From assembly GCA_032250835.1 (NCBI GenBank), contig JAVVEA010000003.1, positions 1 to 57,359 on the forward strand: a stretch of DNA of 57,359 nucleotides, given 5' to 3'. Under the pieces are notes generated by a model. It saw only the letters and a program-made list of their open reading frames with translations, had not been told where the DNA came from and made no database searches. The DNA comes from a bacterium. GTDB taxonomy: Bacteria > SAR324 > XYD2-FULL-50-16. Position 1 is the first letter of the stretch, and each line of letters begins with the position of its first letter. The translations under genes were made by a program, and so were the position numbers. Shown here piece after piece: positions 1 to 23,205 of this stretch.

Positions 1-72
1 GTTTGATAGGCTGGGAGTGGAAGTGCAGTAATGTATGCAGCTTACCAGTACTAATCGACCGTGAGGCCTTCT
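1..72 (+). rRNA. rrl: 23S rRNA, 3' end (partial)
   Basis: GTTTGATAGGCTGGGAGTGGAAG...TACCAGTACTAATCGACCGTGAGGC resembles the conserved bacterial 23S 3' terminus, and 5S follows. The end coordinate is approximate. Confidence 0.9.
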
Positions 73-221
73 AAAGCTTCCCAATCGGGCGGCCTGGAGC
101 CGGTTGGTATCTTAATCACCTAATTCACTGTTGGGTATTTAAATTCTTGAGTGGCACTCAATTGGATCAGATTTGAACGCATGCGCGTCTTAGTGAGCAT
201 TAGCTCCTAAGCGCAACCGGT

Positions 222-337
222 TTCCGGTGGCTATAGCGAGGGGGTCACACCTGTTCCCATACCGAACACAGAAGTAAAGTCCCTCAGCGCCGATGGTACT
301 GCAAGGTTTCCTTGTGGGAGAGTAGGTCGCCGCCGGA
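222..337 (+). rRNA. rrf: 5S rRNA
   Basis: TCCGGTGGC...CACCTGTTCCCATACCGAACACAGAAGT...CGCCGATGGTACTG...GGGAGAGTAGGTCGCCGCCGGA; the two ends pair, length about 116 nt. Confidence 0.97.
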
Positions 338-340
338 TTT

Positions 341-391
341 AAAACACAAAAGGCCAGAGTAAGCACAGCTTACTCTGGCCTTTTGTGTTTT
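341..391 (+). terminator. Intrinsic terminator of the rrn operon (probably bidirectional)
   Basis: Perfect 24-bp inverted repeat AAAACACAAAAGGCCAGAGTAAGC / GCTTACTCTGGCCTTTTGTGTTTT with an ACA loop, directly after 5S. Confidence 0.9.
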
Positions 392-613
392 TAGGCTGAT
401 GACCCAATCTTGCAGGTAAACCTTGCAGCGCGCCGCCGATGACAAGGCTTCAATCGCATCCCAAAACCCTTCGGTGTAGGGACCAGCGCACGAGAGCGAA
501 TATCTCCGTTAACGCAAAACCTTTGTGATCTGCGAGGCCTTGTGGGAGAGTAGGTCGCCAACCGATTCTTGGTTCTCCCCGCTTTTGGCTAACGGCAGGT
601 TGGGACCCCAAAC

Positions 614-651
614 AAAAAGCCTAACTAAGTGAATGCCTAGTTAGGCTTTTT
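614..651 (+). terminator. Second terminator-like hairpin
   Basis: 14-bp inverted repeat AAAAAGCCTAACTA / TAGTTAGGCTTTTT followed by a T run. Confidence 0.75.
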
Positions 652-868
652 TTGTTTTCAGCTGATGACCCATTCCTGCAGAGAAGCCTTGCAGCGCGCC
701 GCCAATGACAATTCTTCAATCGAAAACCAGAAATTTTCTTTTTTCAGGGGGGCCGCGCGTGGGAGAGAATCGCAACCCCACAAAGCTGCGCTTGGCCCTG
801 GCCCCGAGGGTCGCCAATCGATTGGTTGGTTCTCCCCGCCTTAGCCTAACGGTAGGTTGGGCCACAGG

Positions 869-910
869 AAAAAGAGCCAGAGTAAGAATTGGGTACCTTG
901 GGCTCTTTTT
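869..910 (+). terminator. Third, degenerate terminator-like hairpin
   Basis: Outer stem AAAAAGAGCC / GGCTCTTTTT; the left arm keeps GCCAGAGTAAG from the first terminator. Confidence 0.55.
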
Positions 911-1141
911 GTTTTGCCTTTTGTAGCTGCACCATCATACCGCAATGCTATCGGATCACCGAAGACTTTTCATGGGGATCCAGCGAAAGACCAAGCCAAC
1001 GCAAATGAGCCCCATTGCCAGCTTGCTGCAAGGATTCCAGTTAAACCCACAAGGCCTTGCTGGGTTGGGGCCGCAGGTGGACAATAAAATCCAACCTACA
1101 AAGCTGCGCCGCTAAGACCATCAATCCACCAATCTACCGCA

Positions 1142-1246
1142 TCAGCGGTGGTCGATGCGGTTGTGCTCGATCTGGGCGAGGATGACAAAAAGAATGGCTG
1201 GGATGATTAAGGCACCACCAGCTAAAAGAAAGAATGCAGAGCCCAT
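1142..1246 (-). CDS. Small single-TM protein, 34 aa (MGSAFFLLAGGALIIPAILFVILAQIEHNRIDHR)
   Basis: Hand-translated, not in the ORF track. Strong SD AGGAGGAG just upstream of the ATG, a hydrophobic helix with a charged tail, and an AT-rich promoter-like region upstream. Confidence 0.6.
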   Translation of the reverse strand: MGSAFFLLAGGALIIPAILFVILAQIEHNRIDHR

Positions 1247-1398
1247 AGCTCCTCCTGTTTCAATAGGTCTGTGTAAATATAGTATAACATATATAAATTA
1301 AAAATTACGGAATATTTTGGGACTGCTGGATAGAACGGGGATATAGGTGGGGCATACCCTGGAGGTGAGACAGACCCGAGGCCGGGGGCAGGTGGGGG

Positions 1399-1512
1399 TT
1401 AAACTCTAGGTCGGTCTCGGTCAGACCAGAGATCGATTAAGGCGATCAAAAAATTTAGTAAGATAGGCAGTGCGGCAAAGAGGCCGACAACCATCCAAAG
1501 GGTATCCGGCAT
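1399..1512 (-). CDS. Small single-TM protein, 37 aa (MPDTLWMVVGLFAALPILLNFLIALIDLWSDRDRPRV), Fst/Ldr-like pattern
   Basis: Hand-translated, not in the ORF track. GGAG SD upstream, a hydrophobic helix and a charged C-terminal tail. Confidence 0.55.
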   Translation of the reverse strand: MPDTLWMVVGLFAALPILLNFLIALIDLWSDRDRPRV

Positions 1513-1909
1513 GATCCAACTCCAAAGGAGGTGTTTTTCAGGTTTATGCTAACAAAACCCCTGAGCTAAATCAAAAATTTCACCTGACCGAAGCCCCGCT
1601 TCTAGAAGGCGAAGGGGCTTGCTTTTAGGGATTTGGCAAAATGCAGGCAAAGCTAGATCCACGCAGGCGGCGCATCGGTGGAGTTGGAAAAAAATGGTAG
1701 AAATTGCAGGAGGGGTTGCCAGATGATCCCAAAGGTCCCCGGCCAGGAAGGCTTTAGGGGGCTGAGGGATGAATTTTGGAAATTTCTCGGCCCGAGCGGA
1801 ACCCTTAGGCAACCGTAAAGCGCCCTACCTAATCAGCCATCGGGCAAAGATTGAAGGACTTAGGGTCGGTGATCAGGACGTCACCTCCCCTTGCGTCAGG
1901 CGAGCGGGC

Positions 1910-2416
1910 TTAGTTGCGGAACAATTTGTTGGGGTCGTAATGTTTGCAGAGGTAGTCTTCAAAAGCCCGCTCTGAAACAGGATCAAAAAGGCGCTTGGGG
2001 ATGGTGAAGGCCTTGGTGCGGTCTAGGTAGAAAATAAACTCATAACCCGTTTCCATCACCTTGACCACTCGGTCCCAAGAGATGTCTTCAGAGCCGCGGG
2101 CATTTTCTGTGAAAACCCCCTTTTCACTGAATTCATAACTGATCGGGTGATGGAAGACGTCTTTGTTTTTAAACAAGGCGTTGGCTTGGAACTTGATACG
2201 CAGCGGGATCACTATGAAATAGATGATCGGCGGGATCAAGAAAAGATAAAAGGCGATGGCGGCGACGCCATCGAGATAATAAAAAACCGTCGCGAGGCAC
2301 AACGAAAAAAGGGACATCACAAAATAGACACCTTCGATAAGCCGGTGTTGTCCCAACTGGATATGGCGGAGCATTCGGAATAGATCATTGGGGGCTAGCT
2401 GGGCGGTCAATTTCAT
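1910..2416 (-). CDS. YcxB-family membrane protein
   Basis: Two TM helices followed by YEFSEKGV...ISWDRVVKVMET...AFTIPKRLF, typical of the YcxB C-terminal domain. Confidence 0.75.
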   Translation of the reverse strand: MKLTAQLAPNDLFRMLRHIQLGQHRLIEGVYFVMSLFSLCLATVFYYLDGVAAIAFYLFLIPPIIYFIVIPLRIKFQANALFKNKDVFHHPISYEFSEKGVFTENARGSEDISWDRVVKVMETGYEFIFYLDRTKAFTIPKRLFDPVSERAFEDYLCKHYDPNKLFRN

Positions 2417-2520
2417 GGGGTCTCGGTTGTTGTCGCTTAAGGGTTGAGTTGTCGGTCAGATGGTATCATAATCCCGATAAGCCCAAATGACAACTGCCGG
2501 GGCCCATAGGGAGCCGATTG

Positions 2521-2688
2521 ATGAGTCAGTTTATATTATTTATGGTCTTTTGGATATTGGGGATCGTGGCGGTCCTGGTTGGGCTTTATCTATGGTATAC
2601 CCATTGGCAGCAGCGTAAGAAAGCCGCCGCCGAAGCCGCAGACCCGCCGCCGAAGCCTAAAATGATCCAATACCATAAACTGGACTGA
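2521..2688 (+). CDS. Small single-TM protein, 55 aa (MSQFILFMVFWILGIVAVLVGLYLWYTHWQQRKKAAAEAADPPPKPKMIQYHKLD)
   Basis: Hand-translated, not in the ORF track. GGGAG SD upstream, an N-terminal TM helix followed by RKK (positive-inside). Confidence 0.65.
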   Translation: MSQFILFMVFWILGIVAVLVGLYLWYTHWQQRKKAAAEAADPPPKPKMIQYHKLD

Positions 2689-2769
2689 GCCGAAATTTTC
2701 TTTCCAATTGACCCCCGCTGGTATACATTGACCGCCAAGAGAAACACCCCTAATTACAGGTTCCCACTC

Positions 2770-3528
2770 GTGAAAGGCTTGCTCACCCTTTTTGCTCTGT
2801 GTTTGGTTTTGCCCGCCCAAGGTTGGGCCTTTGATCGTGCCGATTTAGTGGCTACGCTGAAAGACCGCAATTGCCAGCATTGCGATTTAAGTGGGGCCGA
2901 CCTGTCTACTGCTGACCTCTCGCGTGGCAATTTTGTGGGCTCCGACTTTACCTTTGCCAATTTAAAGGAAACCAACTTCTCGGGTGCCAATCTCAAGGGG
3001 GCTAAGTTCGGTTTTGATTTTTTCATGCCCCTGACGCCCGCCAAGGCTCCTGCCGATTCAACCTCTACCGAGGCGAATTCAGCGATGGAACGTTTAGGGG
3101 CGCGCCAGCTCAAAGGGGGACAGGTTTTTGCCCTGTGGGACAATAGTTATGTGAAGATTATTTTGTCCCAGGGGACCCAAATCACGGAGGCAAACTTTTC
3201 TGGAGCTAATCTGGAAGGAGCTAATTTTGTGGCCTGCAACCTTAACAACGCCCAGTTTGACAACACCTTCTTAAAAGACGCGGACTTCAGCTACGCTCGT
3301 CTAAATAAGGCCAACTTTAGCGAAGCCTTCGCTAAAGACGCGCTCTTTTACAAGGCCGACTTGCACTCGACGCTCTTCGCCCAAGCGGACCTCTCGGGCG
3401 CTTTGCTGTATAAGGCGGAATACGAAACCTCGATGGCCGCTATCTATTTTAAGCAAACCAAGCTGGGCGGGGCTTTGGATATGGTGGGTAAGCTCTGCAA
3501 AGAAGGCAGCCTGGGGCGCTGCGATTAA
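2770..3528 (+). CDS. Exported pentapeptide-repeat protein
   Basis: Signal peptide (from GTG 2770; alternative start TTG 2728), CQHC followed by many A(D/N)L/FS pentapeptides, and a C-terminal Cys pair. Confidence 0.88.
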   Translation: MKGLLTLFALCLVLPAQGWAFDRADLVATLKDRNCQHCDLSGADLSTADLSRGNFVGSDFTFANLKETNFSGANLKGAKFGFDFFMPLTPAKAPADSTSTEANSAMERLGARQLKGGQVFALWDNSYVKIILSQGTQITEANFSGANLEGANFVACNLNNAQFDNTFLKDADFSYARLNKANFSEAFAKDALFYKADLHSTLFAQADLSGALLYKAEYETSMAAIYFKQTKLGGALDMVGKLCKEGSLGRCD

Positions 3529-6897: not shown

Positions 6898-7793
6898 CCG
6901 AGGCCTCGGCGTAGATGTGACAGGTTGGCGTGCATCAATTCGAAGTAACCCAAGCCCGCTTGGGCCTCTTTAAGGCTTCGGTTGCCCAGGGGGTGAAGCT
7001 CCAGCAGAGCTAAGCCGGTTTCTTGGGCTAAGGTCCGCGACAGACGGTTGTCGCTCAAGGATTCGTAAAAGATGGCGTCCGCCCCAGAGGTACGAGCCTC
7101 GTTCACCGCCGAAACCATCTGCCGCAAGCTAGTTTGGGACTGGGCCGAAAGCTCGTGCAGCGCAAAACTTTTTAAGTGGTAGCGCGTCGTCAGGTAGTCC
7201 CAAGCGTCATGGCTGACTACCATAGTACGCCCTTGGCACTTGGCTAGGCCCTGGGCGTATTGTTGGTCTAGGGCTTTGAGCTTGGCCCCCAGTTGGTCCA
7301 ACCGGGATTGGATACGGGTCTTGGCCGGGGCGTTCATTTCGCCTAGCTGGTCGGCCAAGAGTTCGGCCACTTCCAGGAACATCATGGGGTCCAGCCAGAG
7401 GTGCGGGTCAAAGCCATGTTCATGACGGTCCTCACCGGCGTCCAGGTCGGGGCCATGCTTTTGGTTGCTGCTAGGGAAATACTCAGATAGCCGGATCACG
7501 CGGCCCCCTTGGCGTTCGATCTCCTGCGCCAACCGGTCCGCCCAGGGTTCTCCGGGGGCGCTGTTGTAGACTAATAACTTGGCGCTAGACGCTCGGGTTA
7601 GGTCCGTTAAGCCGGGGCGGTAGTCGTGGGGGTCTAGGCCCGGTGGCATCAGGTTGACGACCTGATAGTCCGAACCGCCCAGTTGCTCTAGTAAAAAACT
7701 TAAGGGGTAGTTGGCGGCGGTGAGGACCCCTTGGGATCGAGCCAGGCTGGGTTGAAGTAAAAGGAAAATAAACAGGGGTATTAGCAATCGCAT
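6885..7793 (-). CDS. znuA: Zn/Mn ABC transporter substrate-binding protein
   Basis: Signal peptide; DPHDY, HEHGFDPHLWLDP and SHDAWDY metal-ligand motifs. Confidence 0.88.
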   Translation of the reverse strand: MRLLIPLFIFLLLQPSLARSQGVLTAANYPLSFLLEQLGGSDYQVVNLMPPGLDPHDYRPGLTDLTRASSAKLLVYNSAPGEPWADRLAQEIERQGGRVIRLSEYFPSSNQKHGPDLDAGEDRHEHGFDPHLWLDPMMFLEVAELLADQLGEMNAPAKTRIQSRLDQLGAKLKALDQQYAQGLAKCQGRTMVVSHDAWDYLTTRYHLKSFALHELSAQSQTSLRQMVSAVNEARTSGADAIFYESLSDNRLSRTLAQETGLALLELHPLGNRSLKEAQAGLGYFELMHANLSHLRRGLGCSR

Positions 7794-13991: not shown

Positions 13992-15106
13992 GCAGCCACA
14001 ATAGCACCCAAAAATGGCTCCTTTCGGTCCCCGCTCTGGCAGGAGCCAGCGAGGCGGTCCATTGGTTTATCGACGGACTCGACGCCAGCCAACCGGCCGG
14101 GTTGGCGGTCTTGGTGTGGCTCGGTTGGCTGTTGTTCCAGGCCTATGAGAAGGTGCGTTTTATTCCGCGCGTGCGGGCGCAGCGGGGGCTTACGCTTTGG
14201 GCCCATGTAAATTGGGTCTTGTCCTTTCTGGTGCTCTATCCCTCCTATTATTTGCTGGCTCCTTTGGCGGGGGCTCGTTGGTTTGGCTGGATTGAGCCCG
14301 AATTCAGTCTAGCTTGGGGGCCCTGGTTGTTGCTCGCCGGGGCTTTGGTAGGCCCCTTTGCTTGGTTGGTGGGTTATCTTTTGGAGGCGCCAGCCCGCCT
14401 GTTGGAGTTTACCTTAGCGTGCCCGCCGGACCGCCAACCGCTCAAGCTGCTTTTTATTAGTGACCTACACCTGGGCAACCTCTTGCCTGAATCGCGGCTA
14501 GATTGGGTTTTGTCTGTCTGCCAGGAGCGCAAGCCCGATGCCCTGCTGATCGGCGGCGATTTGGTAGACCACGACTCAGTTCAACTTGCAGCGCACCAAG
14601 CTTGGTTCCGTGACTTAGTGGCTTTACTGCCGGTCTATGCGGTACTTGGAAACCACGACATCGTCGCCGGAAGGCAGCAGATTCAAGGCTATTTGGAGGC
14701 TTGGGGGGTGACGGTCTTGCGCGATCAGGTGGCCCAATTGCCCGGTGGCTGGACCTTGGTTGGGGCTTTGGATATAGACTTTGAACAGGACTGCGCCCAA
14801 TCGCTGCTTGGCTTGCCGAAAGAGGCTGGGGCGATCTTGCTGTCGCACAATCCGGACCTACTCAAACAGCTACCCGTCGATTCCTTGGCCAAAGTAGCTC
14901 TCTGCCTCAGCGGCCACACCCACGGCGGCCAAATCCGTTTGCCCTGGATCGGCCCCATTTTACACCCCGCCGACCGCCGCTTTGTCCCCGGCTTGACCCA
15001 ATTAGAGGGCCTACCGCCTGCCCTGGTCAGCCAGGGCCTAGGTTACACCCTGATCCCCATGCGCTGGGACTGCCCCGCCGAAGCGATCTGGCTCGAATGG
15101 ACCTAA
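13988..15106 (+). CDS. Membrane-anchored metallophosphoesterase (YkuE/YaeI-like)
   Basis: SDLHLG, GGDLVD, GNHD, SHNPD and SGHTHGGQ; N-terminal TM segments. Confidence 0.88.
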   Translation: MSSHNSTQKWLLSVPALAGASEAVHWFIDGLDASQPAGLAVLVWLGWLLFQAYEKVRFIPRVRAQRGLTLWAHVNWVLSFLVLYPSYYLLAPLAGARWFGWIEPEFSLAWGPWLLLAGALVGPFAWLVGYLLEAPARLLEFTLACPPDRQPLKLLFISDLHLGNLLPESRLDWVLSVCQERKPDALLIGGDLVDHDSVQLAAHQAWFRDLVALLPVYAVLGNHDIVAGRQQIQGYLEAWGVTVLRDQVAQLPGGWTLVGALDIDFEQDCAQSLLGLPKEAGAILLSHNPDLLKQLPVDSLAKVALCLSGHTHGGQIRLPWIGPILHPADRRFVPGLTQLEGLPPALVSQGLGYTLIPMRWDCPAEAIWLEWT

Positions 15107-18100
15107 CCCTCCACCTGCCCCGGAAAGAAGCGGCCTAGGGCGCGGAGTAGTTCGTTGGGGCGGACCGGTTTGTGGATGATGCCGTCGAAGAGGCGCTCTC
15201 CGTCTATCGGTTCAGCTAGGGCACTGACCGAGGCGGTCAAGGCGAGGATCAGGAATTGGTCGCCGCCCGGTAGGCTGCGGATGATGCGGGTGGCTTCGTA
15301 GCCATTCATTTCGGGCATGCGGATGTCCATCAAGATCAAATCCGGTGCCTGATTTTTGGAGCGCTCCACCGCCGTGGGGCCACTTTCGGCCTCGAAACAT
15401 TCGATCCCGGCGGTGCCTAGGATAGCGCGGGTCAAGCTGCGGTTGGTTTCTACGTCGTCGACCACCAAGACCTTCAGATCTTTAAAGCGCACCTCGGAGC
15501 CCGATCGTTTGGGCCGCGAATGGCTCACTTCGGCCTGATACCGCACTTTGGGCAAAAGCACCCTGAAGAGGCTGCCTTCGTCCACTTCGCTTTCGAGTTC
15601 AATTCTTCCGCCCATCAATTCAACAAAACGCCGACTGACCGCTAGTCCCAAGCCGGTACCGCCATATTTGCGGGTCGATTGGCCGTCGCGCTGGCGGAAG
15701 CTGTCAAAGATCAGGCTTTGGTCCTCAAGGGGGATGCCGATCCCGGTATCTTGGACCTCTAAAATAAATTCAAGGTGCTCGTCTAAGACCTGAGCGCAGC
15801 TTAGATTGACGGATATGCTGCCGGACTCGGTGAATTTGACGGCGTTGCCCACTAGGTTAAGTAACACTTGGCGCAGCCTCAATTCGTCTACGTACAAACG
15901 TTTGGGTAAGTCCGCAGCGGCTTCGGCGGAGAAAGCCAAATCCTTGGACTTAAGCTTTTCGACAAAAAAGCTTTCTAGGTCTTTGATCAACTCTTGTGGA
16001 TCGGTGGGCTCCAGGTTGATTTCGAGCATGCCCGCTTCGATCTTCGAGAGGTCTAATAGGTCGTTGATCAGGTTGAGTAGGCTGTTGCTAGCCGTTTGGA
16101 CAATCGCCACGTAGCGTTTGTGTTCCTCGTCGCTTAGTTCGGCTTGTAAGATGTCGGCAAAGCCGATCACCGCATTGAGGGGCGTGCGGATCTCGTGGGA
16201 CATATTGGCCAAGAATTCGGTCTTGGCGCGGTTGGCCGCCTCGGCTTCTAACTTAGCCTTTAATAATTCCTGGTGGGTGTTGCGTAGTTCGCTGATGTCG
16301 GTGATCAGAGCGAAGCTGCCTAGCTTTTGACCGGCGCTATCAAAGATCGGGGTGGCGCTGATCAGGCAGTAAACGTGGCTACCATCGCCGCGCAGCATGG
16401 TGATTTCGTAGATGCCCGCTTCGCCTGCGTCGCGCTGTTTAAGCTGGCGTACCATCTGGTCGGCTTCACTGGGCGCGATCAGGTCAAAGACGCTCCGGCC
16501 CAAAATTTCTGATTCCGTCTGGTCTAAAATTTCGCACAGTGCCGGGTTGACCATCCGGGTCACCCCTTCGTTGTCTACTTCCCAATAGCCTTCGTTGGTG
16601 GTCTCTAAAACGGATGAGAGGAAGGTTTCGGTCTTTCTTATGTCGGTGATGTCTTGCAAGATCCCTTCTAAATGCACCTTTCCGCTGGGGCTGGTGACGG
16701 TGTGTCCCCGGTGTTGGACTTGGCGCACTTCGCCGTTGGTGCTGCGGATTCGGTGGACCATTTCAAAATGGGCCCGGCGCTCAAAGGCGGTCCGCAGCTC
16801 TGACTCGACCAGAGCGCGGTCCGCCGGGAATACGCCGCTGATCAGGTCTTCTAGCTGGGTCAGGGGGTTGCTCGGGAGCCGGTCGAAGATGCGCAACAAT
16901 TCAGCAGAACTTTCCAAGCGGTTCTCCTCGGGCCACCAAGTCCAACTCCCTAATTGGGCAATGGCCTGAGCTTGACTGAGGCGGGACTGACTTTCGAGCA
17001 GCGCCGCCTGGGCTTCGATTTGGTTGGTGATGTCTACTAGATAACTGTGGATTTGGTTGGGCGAGTTGCCTTGGGCTGGCTCGATCAGGTTGGTGAAGTC
17101 ATAGACCCACATCTCGCGACCATCACTGCGTAAGAGGCGGTAAGGGCGGTGTTCTAAAGAGTGGCTGCCAGCACCCAGGGCCTGTTCTAGCTCTTTGTGG
17201 TGCGTTGCTCGGTCGTCGAGGTGGATCAAATTTTCTAAAGGCGAGTTTTGAGTTTGCAGTAACTCAGCAGAAAACCCCAGGATGCGCTCTAAGTTTGGTG
17301 AGGCGTATTCGATGGGTAGGCCCGGCTTTAATTGGCACTTAAAGACCAACACCCGCCCGCCGACAAAGAGGTCGCGTTCGTCTTGTAGTTGTCTGGTGGC
17401 CTTGCGTTCTAGTTTGAAGGTGCGGTAGGAATTTTCGAGCAGCCGGTTGATGGAGTGGCGCAATTCGCGGAATTCGTAGTGCTCGTCTAATCCTTCGGCG
17501 ATGCGTTGCTCGCTGGGCCGTTCGGGGTGCACCTGGGAGAGCTCTTCTAATAAATGGTTCACCGGACGACTTAAGTAGTATCGGTAAAGCCACAAGAGCA
17601 AACCAGCCAACAGTAGGTTGCGCAACAAACCGGAAAACAGGGTCCAAACCGAGCGGGCCATAAAGTCGGCATAGACTTGCAACTGGTCCTGCTCAACCTG
17701 TAAATGACCGACCTTAAAGCTGAGGTCGCTGTGGTGGTGCAGCGGGAATCGGTGTTCCTGATACCGGCCAGGGGATCGCTCAAAAAAGCCGTAGATCCAA
17801 GTAGGGCTAGGTAAAACGGCGGCCTCTCCATGGGAGGCAAGGGGGTGGCCTTCGTCGTCAAAGAGGCTGACTTGGGTGATGTAGCGTTGTTGTAGTAGCC
17901 CTTCAACCACCTCCGAAGCCAATACCCGGTCTAGCGTATAGGCTGCCTGACTGGCGGCCTTGTCAAAGGCCCGGATCAGTTCGGTCAGTTCTCGATCAGA
18001 GAGGCGTTGCTGTTGGTTGAAGTCGTGGACAATCTGGAAGGAGCTAAACAACAGGCCTAGCCCCACGGCTGCGGCGAGGCTAAGTTGGGTTAGCCTAGTG

Positions 18101-18138
18101 GTGAGCCGGGTATTGGCGCGTTTCAAGGTAGCTGCCAT
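15103..18138 (-). CDS. Hybrid sensor histidine kinase / response regulator with three PAS domains
   Basis: Two TM segments with a periplasmic domain, PAS/PAC repeats, FLANMSHEIRTPLN, NLVGNAVKFT, GGTGLGL, and a receiver domain (VVDD...DIRMP...KP). Confidence 0.93.
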   Translation of the reverse strand: MAATLKRANTRLTTRLTQLSLAAAVGLGLLFSSFQIVHDFNQQQRLSDRELTELIRAFDKAASQAAYTLDRVLASEVVEGLLQQRYITQVSLFDDEGHPLASHGEAAVLPSPTWIYGFFERSPGRYQEHRFPLHHHSDLSFKVGHLQVEQDQLQVYADFMARSVWTLFSGLLRNLLLAGLLLWLYRYYLSRPVNHLLEELSQVHPERPSEQRIAEGLDEHYEFRELRHSINRLLENSYRTFKLERKATRQLQDERDLFVGGRVLVFKCQLKPGLPIEYASPNLERILGFSAELLQTQNSPLENLIHLDDRATHHKELEQALGAGSHSLEHRPYRLLRSDGREMWVYDFTNLIEPAQGNSPNQIHSYLVDITNQIEAQAALLESQSRLSQAQAIAQLGSWTWWPEENRLESSAELLRIFDRLPSNPLTQLEDLISGVFPADRALVESELRTAFERRAHFEMVHRIRSTNGEVRQVQHRGHTVTSPSGKVHLEGILQDITDIRKTETFLSSVLETTNEGYWEVDNEGVTRMVNPALCEILDQTESEILGRSVFDLIAPSEADQMVRQLKQRDAGEAGIYEITMLRGDGSHVYCLISATPIFDSAGQKLGSFALITDISELRNTHQELLKAKLEAEAANRAKTEFLANMSHEIRTPLNAVIGFADILQAELSDEEHKRYVAIVQTASNSLLNLINDLLDLSKIEAGMLEINLEPTDPQELIKDLESFFVEKLKSKDLAFSAEAAADLPKRLYVDELRLRQVLLNLVGNAVKFTESGSISVNLSCAQVLDEHLEFILEVQDTGIGIPLEDQSLIFDSFRQRDGQSTRKYGGTGLGLAVSRRFVELMGGRIELESEVDEGSLFRVLLPKVRYQAEVSHSRPKRSGSEVRFKDLKVLVVDDVETNRSLTRAILGTAGIECFEAESGPTAVERSKNQAPDLILMDIRMPEMNGYEATRIIRSLPGGDQFLILALTASVSALAEPIDGERLFDGIIHKPVRPNELLRALGRFFPGQVEG

Positions 18139-18872
18139 AACTCGCCGGATTGATGTTTCAGCAAGTCTTCAAAGAAACCTTCTTGGCGCATGTCGTTGAC
18201 CGCTTTTTCAAAAAGCGGTGCTTGAGCGCGCAGCGGCGACTTAGCGGAAATTTGTAACCATACCTCGGCCCGCTCTAAGATTAAGGGCTTACCGGTTCGT
18301 ATTCTCGAGCTTTGCTGGTTTAAGTGATGGGCCAAAGAGATGTTCGGCCCGGCGATATAGTCTAAGCGGTCGGCCAAAAACATTTGGACCATCACCTCAT
18401 AACTGCGGACTTCAATTTTTTCGATTTGGGGGTTTTGGTCAAACTCCTTGGGGTAGGGGAGCCCGCGCAGGACGCCAACCTTTTTGCCCTCTAGGTGCTT
18501 GAGGTCATCTATAGCCAACCCCGGCTTGGCCACCACCACGGTAGCTAGGTCAAAACATTTGCCTGCATAGACCACGGCTCCGTCCAATCGCTTCGAGCGG
18601 ATCAAGACCGTCAGGTCCGCTCGACCGGTGGCCAAGTTGCGTAGTACCCGGGCATAGGGGCTTAAGCGGGTTTGGATGGTTATGCCGGTGCGGTCTTGAA
18701 GTTGCTTGACTACCGGTGCCCAAAGCCCGCTTAGTTGGCGGCTGCCGTCGGGCCGTGGGGTATAAAAGCCCCAGGGAGCGGCTTCTAAAATATCGGCTAC
18801 CGGGGCCTGGGCTTTAGCCTGAGGGCTGAAGACAATCAGGCAAAGCAACGGCAGAAAAAGTCGGCTCAGCAT
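18123..18872 (-). CDS. Periplasmic substrate-binding protein (SBP family 3-like)
   Basis: Signal peptide; APWGFY, PYARVL and LEGKKVGVLRG; overlaps the start of the hybrid kinase. Confidence 0.8.
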   Translation of the reverse strand: MLSRLFLPLLCLIVFSPQAKAQAPVADILEAAPWGFYTPRPDGSRQLSGLWAPVVKQLQDRTGITIQTRLSPYARVLRNLATGRADLTVLIRSKRLDGAVVYAGKCFDLATVVVAKPGLAIDDLKHLEGKKVGVLRGLPYPKEFDQNPQIEKIEVRSYEVMVQMFLADRLDYIAGPNISLAHHLNQQSSRIRTGKPLILERAEVWLQISAKSPLRAQAPLFEKAVNDMRQEGFFEDLLKHQSGELWQLP

Positions 18873-18943
18873 TTTGGACGGAATTTTGGGGTTTTGCTTT
18901 TAGGACTACCCCAAAAGGCACCCTTTGAAAATCTATTTTTCGC

Positions 18944-19408
18944 TTAATAAGCAGAGAGTTGGCCTTGGTGGGCTAACCATTGGATCAAAGGTTCTAGCGT
19001 TGCGTCACGTTGCTGTTGTGGCTGGCAAACTAGGTAAAAGCCCATCACGTCGGTCTGTTGGGGGAATAACTTGAGTTTCCAAAGATCGGGCCAAGCCCCG
19101 ACCCCATATCGCAAAGCAAGCTGCAACCCTGGCCCTCCCAAGGGGGCCAACTCTTCACTAAGGTCTACTTTAAATTCAATCCAGGGGTTGCCTTCTTGGT
19201 ACTGTTCTAGCCGCGGGGCCAGCCAATGTTGGTAAAAGGCAGGGAGGCTATAGACATGGATGGTGACCGGGTCCTTTTTTTGGAGCAGGCCGCTGGCTAA
19301 GAAGGTGATGCGTTTGCATTGAGGACAGCGGAACATATGGCTCTGGGCCGGGCGTCCGCCTTGGGGGGCTTGGTTAAAACGGGCACCGCAATGGTCACAT
19401 TGATACAT
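18944..19408 (-). CDS. Zinc ribbon fused to a partial LysR (GcvA-like) substrate-binding domain
   Basis: CDHC...CPQC, then LPAFYQHWLAPRL...LALRYGVGAWPDL and FYLVC...LIQWL. Confidence 0.7.
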   Translation of the reverse strand: MYQCDHCGARFNQAPQGGRPAQSHMFRCPQCKRITFLASGLLQKKDPVTIHVYSLPAFYQHWLAPRLEQYQEGNPWIEFKVDLSEELAPLGGPGLQLALRYGVGAWPDLWKLKLFPQQTDVMGFYLVCQPQQQRDATLEPLIQWLAHQGQLSAY

Positions 19409-19414
19409 GGCCCG

Positions 19415-19918
19415 CTAGAGGAGGCTTTTTTGATTGCGTTGCGGGCCCGGTCGGTATCCGATTTTTTCCCAAAAGGCCGCCGCACCCGGGATATTGAGGT
19501 GGAAGTTTAGTTCCACCCTTTCTACTCCCGCTTCTTTAAAAGCCACTTCCAGGGCCTCTACTAAGCGCCGGGCCAAGCCCCGTTGGCGGTAAAGTGGCTC
19601 GACCCAAATGGTTTCGATGTAGCCCAGCTTCTTAACTTGGCTGAGTGGCATCCAGGCGGGCTGAGGCTCACCGAAGATCAAGCCAACGGGCGTTCCGGCC
19701 ACTTCGGCGACCCAGCCTATGCCTTGCTTGCGGCCTAGCAGGTCTAAGGAAAAGGCGTGGCAAACCTCTTGGTAGGTGGGCATTAGCTGTTGGAATTGAG
19801 GGTCCTGAGCGTTGGCCCCAATCTCGGCTAAGGTGCCGCACATGCTTTGGGTGAGGTAGTCTAGATCTTCGGGGCTAAGGTGCCGCAAGACCGGTTCAAG
19901 GGCTTGAGGCTCACTCAT
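19415..19918 (-). CDS. GNAT-family N-acetyltransferase
   Basis: IWVEPLYRQRGLARRL and AAAFWEKIGY. Confidence 0.88.
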   Translation of the reverse strand: MSEPQALEPVLRHLSPEDLDYLTQSMCGTLAEIGANAQDPQFQQLMPTYQEVCHAFSLDLLGRKQGIGWVAEVAGTPVGLIFGEPQPAWMPLSQVKKLGYIETIWVEPLYRQRGLARRLVEALEVAFKEAGVERVELNFHLNIPGAAAFWEKIGYRPGPQRNQKSLL

Positions 19919-20966
19919 AAAGGGTCACCCGTTTCGGGTCAAAGGATTCACGCACTGCTTCGCCGATGAAGGTGAACAAGAGCAAGACGCCGATAGTCGC
20001 CACCGAAGGGCTCAAGAGGATCCAAGGGGCATAGTCAAAGGTCTCTTGCCCCTGGCGTAGCAGTTCACCCCAACTAGGCGTAGGGATAGGTAGGCCGTAG
20101 CCCAGATAGTCGAGGCTGGTCAAGGCCCCGATGCCCGCGACCATCTGGAAGGGCAGCCGGGCGATGATCGGCACCATGCTGTTGGGTAAAAGATGGCGCA
20201 CCACAATCCGCAGGTGGCTAGCGCCCATTGAACGGGCGGCCTCACAATATTGCCGGCTCTTTTCGCGGTAGATCTCGGCGCGCATCAGCCAGGTCATGTC
20301 GGTCCAGCCCACAAAGACCAGGATAAACAATAAGATCCAAAAATTGGGCGTCATCAACGCCGCCATGATCAAGATCAAATATAAGGTGGGGATGGAGGTC
20401 CAGATCTCCACCAAGCGTTGCATGAATAAATCAAAGGCCCCGCCGAAATAGCCCATCAAACTACCGATCAAGATGCCCAGGCTGCTGGTCAACAGATAAA
20501 GGGCAAAGGAAAAGAGGATGGCCACCCGGAAGCCATAGAGCAGCCGGGCCAAAATATCCCGTCCGGCGTTGTCGGTGCCCAGGTAGTGCCCTGCTGCCCA
20601 GTTGGGCGGGTTTGGGGGGTTGCCTTCTAAGGAGAAGTCTGATTCTAAGGGGCTAAAGGGCACCAGCGGCATCAACACCCAACCTTCCCCCTTGGCCTCG
20701 ATTTGGGCTTTTAGTTGGCGGTAGTTGGTCTCGAAGCGGTAGTCTAGGCCAAAGGTTTCGCCAGGGATGATGGCCCCATAACTGGGGAAGTATAGCTGGC
20801 CTTGATGGGAGACCAATAAGGCCCGGTGGCTAACCCAAAGCTCCAAAAACAACGAGGCCAACAGCAAGGCCGACAAAATCCAAAAGGACCAAAACCCCCG
20901 CCGGATTTGGGCAAAGCGGTGCAGTCTTTTTTGGGTGCCTGGGTGCAGCTTGAGGAATTTGATCAT
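19911..20966 (-). CDS. yejE: Peptide ABC transporter permease, YejE/OppC-like
   Basis: HYLGTDNAGRDILARLLYGFR, EAA motif YCEAARSMGA, LDYLGYGLP, SWGELL and FIGEAVRESFDP. Confidence 0.8.
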   Translation of the reverse strand: MIKFLKLHPGTQKRLHRFAQIRRGFWSFWILSALLLASLFLELWVSHRALLVSHQGQLYFPSYGAIIPGETFGLDYRFETNYRQLKAQIEAKGEGWVLMPLVPFSPLESDFSLEGNPPNPPNWAAGHYLGTDNAGRDILARLLYGFRVAILFSFALYLLTSSLGILIGSLMGYFGGAFDLFMQRLVEIWTSIPTLYLILIMAALMTPNFWILLFILVFVGWTDMTWLMRAEIYREKSRQYCEAARSMGASHLRIVVRHLLPNSMVPIIARLPFQMVAGIGALTSLDYLGYGLPIPTPSWGELLRQGQETFDYAPWILLSPSVATIGVLLLFTFIGEAVRESFDPKRVTLYE

Positions 20967-21108
20967 TAGCGTCCTGCGTTGAGAATGGCGGCAGTTTAAC
21001 TGGAAGTCTCAGGATAGGCAACCTCCAGGAAAAAAGCCTTTACGCAAAAAGGCCGAGTTAATAGACTACAGCCTTAGTCCCCCCAATGCCCCTTCATGGT
21101 TAAGCCCA

Positions 21109-22251: not shown

Positions 22252-23205
22252 CTATGCCGAGGCCCCTTGTAGGTTGACCACGGCCTTGGCGGCGTCAAAG
22301 GTGCCGCCGGGCTCTAAGACACAGGCCAACCAACGGTTGGGGTTGTGCAGCAGCAGCAAGCCTTCTTCGGTATCCTGTCGGTAGTCACCGGCCACCGGCG
22401 TGTGCCCTGAGACCCAAAGGCTCTCTTTGGGGTCGCCGCCCAATAGTTCCTTAAATAATCTGCGGATTGTGCCCGCTTCGGCTTGGTGGTCTCGGGTCCA
22501 GGTCAAACCTTCAATGACCTGAGGGTGGTCTCGGTGGTTGATCAGCTCATTAAAGCCAAAGGGTTGGCGTGGCCGCGAATGGCTGAGCACAAAATACCGG
22601 CCCCTGGCGGCGAGGGGTAAGGCTTGCTCGAAGCGGGCGAAACGGTCTAAAAAGTCAGGGCCCAGGTTTTTAAGCACCCAGGCTTTAGTCATCGCTCCCT
22701 CGGCGGCAAACTTAGCGAAGCTGTGGTCGCCTAATTCGCTACGGTCCAAAATGTTCTCGTGGTTGCCTTTAAGGAAGTGGAACCGCGCGCCGCAGCGGGC
22801 CTTGAGGTCCATCACTCGGGCCATGGTGCCCAGGCTTTCTTCCATTTCGGCGTCCATCGCCGGGCTCTCGGCAAAGCCGCTACGGTATTCTTCCATCGCC
22901 TCAACCCAGCGGGCCCGCCCGCGTAGTTCCGAATGCATCCCGTCGCCTAAAAAGACGACCTGGATCTTTCCGGCGATCAAGCCTTCTTCAATGCTTTGGC
23001 CTTGATAAGGATGGGCCAAAAAGGCCTCCACTAAGTCCAAGCGCCCGTGGATGTCGGGTAGGACCCAGGTGGGTAGGTCTTCTTTGAGCAACACCAACCC
23101 GCCGGGCCGCTTTTGGCTGTCCGGCGGACGGACCCAGGGGTCCTCTTGGCTCAAGGCGCTCAGGGCGGCGTCTAAGAATCGGTTGAGTTGGGGGCTGGGG
23201 ATCAT
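22252..23205 (-). CDS. Calcineurin-like (PPP-type) metallophosphoesterase
   Basis: DIHG, LGDGMH, KGNHE and SGHTP motifs. Confidence 0.8.
   Translation of the reverse strand: MIPSPQLNRFLDAALSALSQEDPWVRPPDSQKRPGGLVLLKEDLPTWVLPDIHGRLDLVEAFLAHPYQGQSIEEGLIAGKIQVVFLGDGMHSELRGRARWVEAMEEYRSGFAESPAMDAEMEESLGTMARVMDLKARCGARFHFLKGNHENILDRSELGDHSFAKFAAEGAMTKAWVLKNLGPDFLDRFARFEQALPLAARGRYFVLSHSRPRQPFGFNELINHRDHPQVIEGLTWTRDHQAEAGTIRRLFKELLGGDPKESLWVSGHTPVAGDYRQDTEEGLLLLHNPNRWLACVLEPGGTFDAAKAVVNLQGASA

Follow-up and report, generated by a model that had tools for sequence, protein, structure and literature searches.

A zinc-ribbon protein with regulatory subdomain I, but not subdomain II, of LysR regulators in SAR324 bacteria

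The stretch of DNA analysed here, called the window below, comprises 57,359 nucleotides (nt), positions 1 to 57,359 of contig JAVVEA010000003.1 of assembly GCA_032250835.1, which comes from a bacterium of the SAR324 lineage. At positions 18944..19408 on its minus strand lies an intact open reading frame (ORF) with an ATG start, which codes for a protein of 154 amino acids (aa), the coordinates including the stop codon (ORF list). The protein consists of an N-terminal four-cysteine (Cys4) zinc ribbon and the first subdomain (RD-I) of the regulatory domain of LysR-type regulators, and it lacks both the second subdomain (RD-II) and the winged helix-turn-helix (HTH) of these regulators. In tblastn searches of the genome, no paralog of either half was found (best non-self E values of 0.04 and 0.068), and the ORF is a genuine gene, present in a single copy. 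We refer to it as the zinc-ribbon gene; its parts are as follows, with the evidence for each in brackets.

18944..19408, minus strand: whole ORF, zinc ribbon plus LysR RD-I-only protein, 154 aa plus stop (ORF list; six family clusters)
19301..19408, minus strand: Cys4 zinc ribbon (putative zinc site), residues 1-36, with C4, C7, C28 and C31 and the invariant G8, R19, P20 and T35 (alignment, Pfam, AlphaFold2)
19268..19300, minus strand: linker, residues 37-47, of low model confidence and variable length within the family (model confidence, alignment)
19064..19267, minus strand: first piece of RD-I, residues 48-115, a strand, a helix and three strands, with the GcvA/AmpR-type motifs LPxF..WL and RYGxGxW (Pfam, NCBIfam, PDB, hhalign; model confidence 86-95)
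19043..19063, minus strand: joint PQQTDVM, residues 116-122, in place of RD-II (alignments to GcvA and to LysR columns; model confidence 86-91)
18947..19042, minus strand: completing part of RD-I, residues 123-154, with the return strand GFYLVC and the C-terminal helix (hhalign, AlphaFold2)

A preliminary description of this DNA, made from its letters, had read the ORF as intact and had quoted from it the motifs CDHC-x20-CPQC, VTIHVYSLPAFYQHWLAPRLEQYQEGNPWIEF, LALRYGVGAWPDLWKLKLF, GFYLVC and LIQWLAHQ as well as a linker of about 7 aa, all of which are indeed present. The cysteine pattern is C4-D-H-C7, 20 residues and C28-P-Q-C31, and VTIHVYSLPAFYQHWLAPRLEQYQEGNPWIEF and LALRYGVGAWPDLWKLKLF cover residues 48-79 and 97-115, followed by GFYLVC at residues 123-128 and LIQWLAHQ at residues 141-148. 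No signal peptide was noticed on the protein by reading, with no predictor run.

No family of bacterial transcription factors is larger, to our knowledge, than that of the LysR regulators, whose two-lobed sensor domain is usually regarded as something that cannot be divided. The similarity of the zinc-ribbon protein to these regulators, recognised in the preliminary description from motifs, was recovered by profile searches. The Pfam LysR_substrate model (PF03466) matches residues 49-119 with an E value of 4e-6 on profile positions 7-80 of 209, with a score of 26.8 bits that lies just below the gathering cut-off of 28 bits. The same model matches all six members of the protein's family (best E value of 6.7e-9), and the source collection tags the entries P0001 and P0002 with PF03466. 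In NCBIfam, the GcvA model (PRK11139) ranks first with an E value of 3e-12 over two stretches (46.3 bits, short of its 288-bit cut-off), followed by PenR, DsdC and the choline-sulfate regulator. The best sequence matches among solved structures are AmpR (5mmh, E 3.1e-7) and GcvA (8y6u, E 4.1e-7). The full-length sequence closest to the zinc-ribbon protein, P0007, carries the name GcvA in its source and has the C-terminal ending ...LSY in common with it.

The alignment to GcvA 8y6u is split: residues 49-117 of the query fall on residues 95-163 and residues 122-146 on residues 265-289, leaving GcvA residues 164-264 without a counterpart. As the second of these stretches is weak when taken alone in the PDB sequence search, the C-terminal piece was searched separately. 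To this end, the six-member family alignment (A2) was compared by profile-profile comparison (hhalign) with an alignment of 104 full-length LysR regulators, namely the matches of 285-330 aa among P0007-P0152 of the protein search described below. The first piece, query residues 35 to ~118, was placed on LysR columns 85 to ~167 with a probability of 99.5% (E 2.3e-23), and the last 47 residues alone were placed, with query residues 111-151, on LysR columns 259-300 of 302 with a probability of 96.4% (E 1.4e-9). LysR columns ~168-258 have no counterpart in the zinc-ribbon family. From these two placements it follows that ~91-101 residues, corresponding to RD-II, are missing and that 7 residues stand instead, so that the earlier proposal of a cleanly absent RD-II holds.

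The absence of the HTH was likewise upheld. HTH_1 (PF00126) is not among the Pfam matches to the protein at E<=1, all six HTH_1 places of the genome lie outside this ORF, and the Cys4 ribbon sits where a LysR regulator has its winged HTH and linker helix. LysR_substrate also has six places in the genome, five full-length regulators (frames of 296-308 aa) and the zinc-ribbon gene, and no stand-alone RD-II-like ORF was found in this genome scan at E<=0.01. The sole match in PHROGs is phrog_3736, a family of 303 positions and unknown function that aligns to the RD-I part; in PADLOC, no family matches the window protein, and one weak Cas10 match (E 6e-4) was obtained for the family member P0006 only.

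Compared with GcvA/AmpR/DsdC-type regulators, the zinc-ribbon protein therefore presents a mixture of features. RD-I is homologous and collinear in both pieces, and the motifs LPxF..WL..RL, RYGxGxW and FYLV...WL are kept, but the winged HTH, the linker helix and RD-II are gone, an N-terminal Cys4 ribbon is found instead and the protein has half the length (154 versus ~300 aa). Of the four parts that define a LysR-type regulator, one is present, regulatory subdomain I, with both its sequence pieces (hhalign, Foldseek). Because the other three, the HTH, the linker helix and RD-II with its inter-lobe effector cleft (7 residues in its place), are missing, the protein is not a LysR-type regulator in the defining sense. 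It is, however, clearly a derivative of the GcvA/AmpR branch and descends from a GcvA/AmpR-type LysR regulator.

A structure prediction for the protein alone, as suggested in the preliminary description, agrees with this. The AlphaFold2 model, computed from the six-sequence alignment, has a mean predicted local distance difference test score (pLDDT) of 83.9 and a predicted template modelling score of 0.66. Its RD-I part reaches pLDDT values of 86-95 in blocks of ten residues, the joint included (86-91 for the joint itself). Strands are modelled at residues 48-54, 77-83, 95-102, 110-113 and 123-128 and helices at residues 56-73 and 138-151, the strand 123-128 and the helix 138-151 having pLDDT values of 91-95. 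RD-I is thus predicted to close on itself across the joint into one closed alpha/beta lobe, in which, RD-II having been excised, the two sequence pieces of RD-I join directly. In a Foldseek search of the model against the PDB, all six matches at E<=0.001 are AmpR effector-domain chains and the weaker ones are other LysR regulatory domains; in the ESM Atlas model of the same sequence, residues 44-153 align to LysR models with template modelling scores of 0.60-0.62. No linker helix of the LysR type was seen, as the AlphaFold2 model has no helix before residue 56. The ribbon part is modelled at pLDDT values of 65-75, and since linker residues 39-44 fall below 50, the ribbon looks flexibly tethered rather than packed against the lobe. 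Judging from the established structure of LysR regulators, the normal ligand cleft between the subdomains would not be able to form in such a protein. A homodimer prediction (two copies, alignment A2) scored 0.00 in both runs, which were made without controls, and counts neither for nor against self-association.

The four cysteines C4, C7, C28 and C31 are invariant in 6/6 sequences and supply the two CxxC knuckles of a Cys4 ribbon, around both of which the AlphaFold2 model has short beta hairpins or strands. Pfam Zn_ribbon_3 matches five of the six members, below its cut-off, and the ribbon modelled by itself has a pLDDT of 68.1. A profile search of the ribbon against the PDB returned tandem C2H2 fingers (best E value of 7.2e-6), the alignment running over the cysteine pairs of two neighbouring fingers. 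A C2H2 zinc finger is also the automatic UniRef name of one member, but H24 is replaced by N in 2/6 sequences and position 18 is H in only 2/6. As the histidine ligands are not conserved, we rejected this match as evidence for the fold. The ribbon is of a generic Cys4 type with a putative zinc site. Ribbon and linker together are basic in all members (net charge of +3 to +8, isoelectric point of 8.9-9.7), and the RD-I lobe is acidic in 4/6, neutral in one and basic in one; two SAR324-type members carry insertions of 4-6 residues in the linker.

How far does this architecture extend? A word-indexed search of 5.8 billion proteins returned only the protein itself and P0002 (55% identical, 154 aa). 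With HMMER, 1.84 billion representatives were searched exhaustively; there were 426 matches at E<=0.001, and relatives were sought among the best 150 of them. Among the matches listed, three are full-length relatives, P0003 (71% identity, 154 aa), P0004 (36%, 157 aa) and P0006 (34%, 177 aa); the other listed matches hit the RD-I part only, 104 of them being of LysR length (285-330 aa), and no intermediate form, for instance a ribbon joined to a full two-lobed domain, is among them. P0005 (833 aa, 10 stretches, E 8.7e-22) is a cysteine-rich repeat protein, and we discarded it as a compositional artefact. Short matches to RD-I were also rejected as relatives: the five that were read (101-192 aa) are cut or frameshifted ordinary LysR regulators. 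Such truncated fragments (for example, P0048, P0092, P0101 and P0104) resemble the zinc-ribbon protein in being short and in matching the same RD-I segment, but they continue into the first part of RD-II, after which the sequence stops or becomes unrelated, and they have neither a zinc ribbon nor the return strand.

By exact look-up, the family comprises six clusters at 90% identity with 10 sequences in total. Identity within the family is 34-71%, and its members are 154-177 aa long as called and have the four cysteines in common. Members are named 'hypothetical protein' by NCBI and, automatically, 'LysR substrate-binding domain-containing' or 'C2H2-type domain-containing' in UniRef. Full-length copies were found in 4/88 genomes of the phylum (G000, G007, G005 and G020), all within the window's order (4/24, as against 0/64 in the rest of the phylum set), and the other genome matches are LysR-length frames that align to residues ~32-141 only. 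In metagenome contigs, 532 pattern matches led to one relative, whose DNA is identical to the G007 locus (L021). The family has a single origin and has been retained within one order of SAR324/'Lambdaproteobacteria', and the window gene is not a one-off chimera, which the preliminary description had named as a possible refutation.

Across the six sequences, 26 columns are invariant, all four cysteines included; the invariant positions comprise C4, C7, C28, C31, G8, R19, P20, P56, F58, W62, L63, R100, Y101, G102, G104, W106, L114, F115 and Y125. All four copies for which DNA is available are open and without internal stops, a TGA flagged in G020 being the natural stop. The window and G007 proteins are 49% identical, and their genes have a dN of 0.49 and a dS of 2.06, a ratio of ~0.24 with dS near saturation; for more distant pairs, dS is saturated and not computable. 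The ratio, which the preliminary description had named as a check, fits purifying selection, as far as such a weak sequence-based estimate can indicate. We are confident that this is a real, conserved gene with a zinc ribbon plus RD-I-only architecture and not debris.

No curated family describing the architecture was found among Pfam, NCBIfam and the UniRef and NCBI names, and the parts of the literature accessible to us on LysR proteins with zinc ribbons, truncations or missing DNA-binding domains hold no description of it, in line with the earlier impression of an undescribed family. Natural excision of a lobe together with a change of head is unusual, and here it is conserved. The family demonstrates that one lobe of a LysR sensor can be lost cleanly in evolution and the remaining lobe re-closed, with a zinc ribbon taking the place of the DNA-binding head, and that such a product can be maintained by selection. 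It also offers structural biologists a case from nature on which to test whether binding-protein-type folds have grown from a single-lobed ancestor, and it may reveal an unrecognised route of signalling or regulation in uncultured SAR324/Lambdaproteobacteria. Its practical weight is limited, the family being tiny, confined to uncultured bacteria and of putative function.

Regarding function, we tentatively propose that the protein is a non-canonical small regulator or adaptor that makes its contacts via the tethered zinc ribbon, most likely with nucleic acid; we regard this as possible, though short of probable. The basic, tethered, putative zinc ribbon would be the contact head, binding nucleic acid or otherwise a protein partner, and the RD-I lobe would provide either a stable body or a second surface for docking. 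By analogy with LysR regulators of known structure, reading DNA through a winged HTH, forming tetramers through the linker helix and enclosing an effector between two lobes would not be possible for it. The closest functional analogy that we can name would be NrdR, a repressor built from a zinc ribbon and an ATP-cone. Both are small bacterial proteins in which a single compact regulatory domain follows an N-terminal CxxC...CxxC ribbon, but no relation in sequence was seen: no ATP-cone or NrdR model is in the Pfam or NCBIfam lists for the zinc-ribbon protein, and its body is a LysR RD-I lobe.

Several observations weigh against a nucleic-acid-binding regulator or adaptor. All Pfam zinc-ribbon matches lie below their cut-offs, and a Foldseek search of the PDB with the ribbon-alone model gave no match at E<=0.001, the weaker ones being generic ribbons, RING domains and C2H2 fingers, so that the ribbon matches no characterised DNA-binding ribbon in either Foldseek or Pfam. 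The charge pattern is not uniform, as the two SAR324-type members do not have an acidic RD-I. The conservation statistics are weak because the family is so small. Finally, in 2/4 loci the gene is tightly coupled to a gene for a GNAT acetyltransferase, which could mean that the protein has a dedicated protein partner. The genes of the window that matter here are the following.

19911..20966, minus strand: ABC-type permease (BPD_transp_1, Pfam E 2.6e-29), first gene of the run, divergent from bioB
19415..19918, minus strand: GNAT acetyltransferase, 167 aa (Pfam Acetyltransf_1, E 3.8e-15), upstream of the zinc-ribbon gene
15103..18872, minus strand: pair of a binding-protein-like gene and a hybrid histidine kinase gene (Pfam, ORF list)

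The GNAT gene overlaps the permease gene by 8 nt, and its stop codon is separated from the ATG of the zinc-ribbon gene by 6 nt. Past the zinc-ribbon gene, at a distance of 71 nt, follows a gene for a putatively secreted, binding-protein-like protein (249 aa, 18123..18872, minus strand), which is overlapped by 16 nt by the gene for a 1011-aa hybrid histidine kinase with three PAS stretches, HisKA, HATPase_c and a receiver. The 249-aa protein has, by eye, an apparent signal peptide, and its Pfam matches are weak (Phosphonate-bd 3.7e-4, LysR_substrate 0.009, SBP_bac_3 0.04). No promoter-like or terminator-like sites were found on the minus strand from 18873 to 19414. Among the public sequencing runs listed for window positions 18100-21000 there is no RNA run, and the one run listed is a DNA run with a 0.07 share of words.

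The locus of G007 (L021), which is from another genus, has the order uvrB, purH, pepP, metallophosphoesterase, zinc-ribbon gene, GNAT, permease and divergent bioB; at this syntenic place, both the binding-protein gene and the kinase are missing. Its zinc-ribbon gene has an apparent TTG start 7 nt past the GNAT stop. The GNATs of the window and G007 are homologous and in the same position, with 26% identity (E 1e-18). The most similar permease (84% identity) is that of G003 (L038), a genome that is 97% complete, in which the GNAT and zinc-ribbon genes are both missing from the spot. Two unrelated ORFs of 144 and 158 aa lie there instead, SRPBCC-like and MarR-like by eye. Across the window, G007 and G003, the region that separates the permease gene from the pepP/metallophosphoesterase genes (18873..19918 in the window) is a variable spot. 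At the other two loci with DNA, both of SAR324 type, the zinc-ribbon gene is divergent from a histidine kinase/response regulator pair (L022) or lies downstream of a CBS-pair gene (L023, in G020). Just past the copy in G020 (L023 ~6900..7791, also L004), there are AT-rich ORFs that by eye look like pieces of IS200/IS605-type TnpB, and an ORF past this copy is unrelated to the binding-protein-like gene of the window (BLASTP E 1.4).

The preliminary description had called the gene operonic. This was confirmed for the window and G007, that is, for 2/4 loci with DNA, and does not extend to L022 and L023, where the permease-GNAT-gene order is not found. The differing neighbours among the four loci fit an autonomous function, as we propose for the protein as a regulator or adaptor. 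They bear as well on the strongest of the other explanations, in which the protein belongs to the adjacent GNAT, as its accessory subunit, its regulator or its substrate, and the two genes form a cassette, possibly of a regulatory-domain-plus-GNAT or toxin-antitoxin-like kind. The close spacing and the same gene order in the window and G007, and the joint absence of both genes beside the G003 permease, speak for such a cassette. However, no GNAT adjoins the gene at L022 and L023, and no homolog of the window GNAT was found with it as query in G005 (68% complete) or G020 (88% complete). In addition, the two GNATs are only 26% identical as compared with 49% for the zinc-ribbon proteins, so the pair is not visibly tightly co-evolving. 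In TacT/TacA-type pairs, an antitoxin with a ribbon-helix-helix (RHH)/DUF1778 domain adjoins a GNAT toxin. Here, no DUF1778 or other RHH antitoxin-type domain is in the Pfam list, there is no PADLOC match, and the GNAT is a neighbour in 2/4 loci only. Taken together, we consider a GNAT cassette unlikely.

A bolder idea, to which we give a similarly small chance, is that the protein is a natural half Venus-flytrap: a one-component signalling protein in which the zinc ribbon has replaced the HTH as output head and the lone RD-I lobe senses by a new route, either through a ligand site on the invariant RYGxGxW loop or by docking in trans to another lobe or protein. Were this true, the protein would be a present-day equivalent of the progenitor with a single lobe that has been proposed for this fold. 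Single-lobe constructs of ribose-binding protein are reported to be folded and monomeric and not to bind ligand until paired with the other lobe (PMC10601554). These halves resemble the zinc-ribbon protein in that one lobe of a two-lobed binding-protein-type fold stands alone, but they were made in the laboratory from a type I transport protein, whereas the zinc-ribbon protein is natural and conserved and derives from a type II LysR domain to which a ribbon is attached.

As engineered single lobes of a periplasmic binding protein are reported to fold and to pair with the complementary lobe (PMC10601554), docking of a lone lobe is possible in principle, and RD-I has kept its GcvA/AmpR-type core motifs. 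One might speculate that the RD-I lobe docks on a full-length LysR regulator, at its regulatory domain, and prevents its oligomerisation or activation, which is the dominant-negative or anti-LysR partner put forward in the preliminary description. This proposal did not fare well. The five resident LysR regulators have no pairwise similarity to the protein (phmmer with filters off, best score of -1.1 bits), and GcvA-like LysR matches at E<=0.001, in the 61 genomes searched with this query, occur in 0/4 carriers as opposed to 15 non-carriers. The genome scan with LysR_substrate found no stand-alone RD-II-like ORF that could act as partner lobe. The evidence thus goes against a dominant-negative role, as no similar LysR paralog to pair with was found in the carriers, and we regard it as quite improbable.

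A metal or redox sensor or adaptor, with the Cys4 site altering the presentation of RD-I in the manner of a thiol switch or metal sensor, seems just as improbable to us. The invariance of the four cysteines would suit it, as would the signalling genes that adjoin two of the loci, namely the hybrid histidine kinase downstream in the window and the divergent kinase/response regulator pair at L022. Yet nothing sets the ribbon apart from a structural zinc site, and the kinase neighbours are not conserved, kinase and binding protein both being missing at the G007 syntenic place. Least probable of all is a lineage-specific relic, that is, a remodelled LysR fragment that is still translated but does little or nothing for the cell and is gradually disappearing: the patchy distribution (4/24 genomes of the order, none of 64 elsewhere in the phylum set), the variable neighbours and the one copy beside insertion-sequence-like ORFs (by eye) could be read in this way, but the frames are intact and nearly equal in length at 34-71% identity, Cys4 and the core motifs are invariant, none of the four DNA copies has an internal stop and dN/dS is ~0.24.

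A few observations concern the wider surroundings. A match to the permease is found in 17/19 genomes of the family-level group, and in the window neither an ATPase nor a binding-protein gene stands beside the permease gene at 19911..20966. Near the copy at L022, past the kinase/response regulator pair and within positions 1..3223, lie a gene for a multihaem cytochrome (MtrC/MtrF-like, cytochrome c7) and an EB_dh ethylbenzene-dehydrogenase-like gene. A 317-aa ORF at 22252..23205 on the minus strand of the window matches no Pfam family at E<=1e-5 and carries motifs that, by eye, we take to be metallophosphatase-like.

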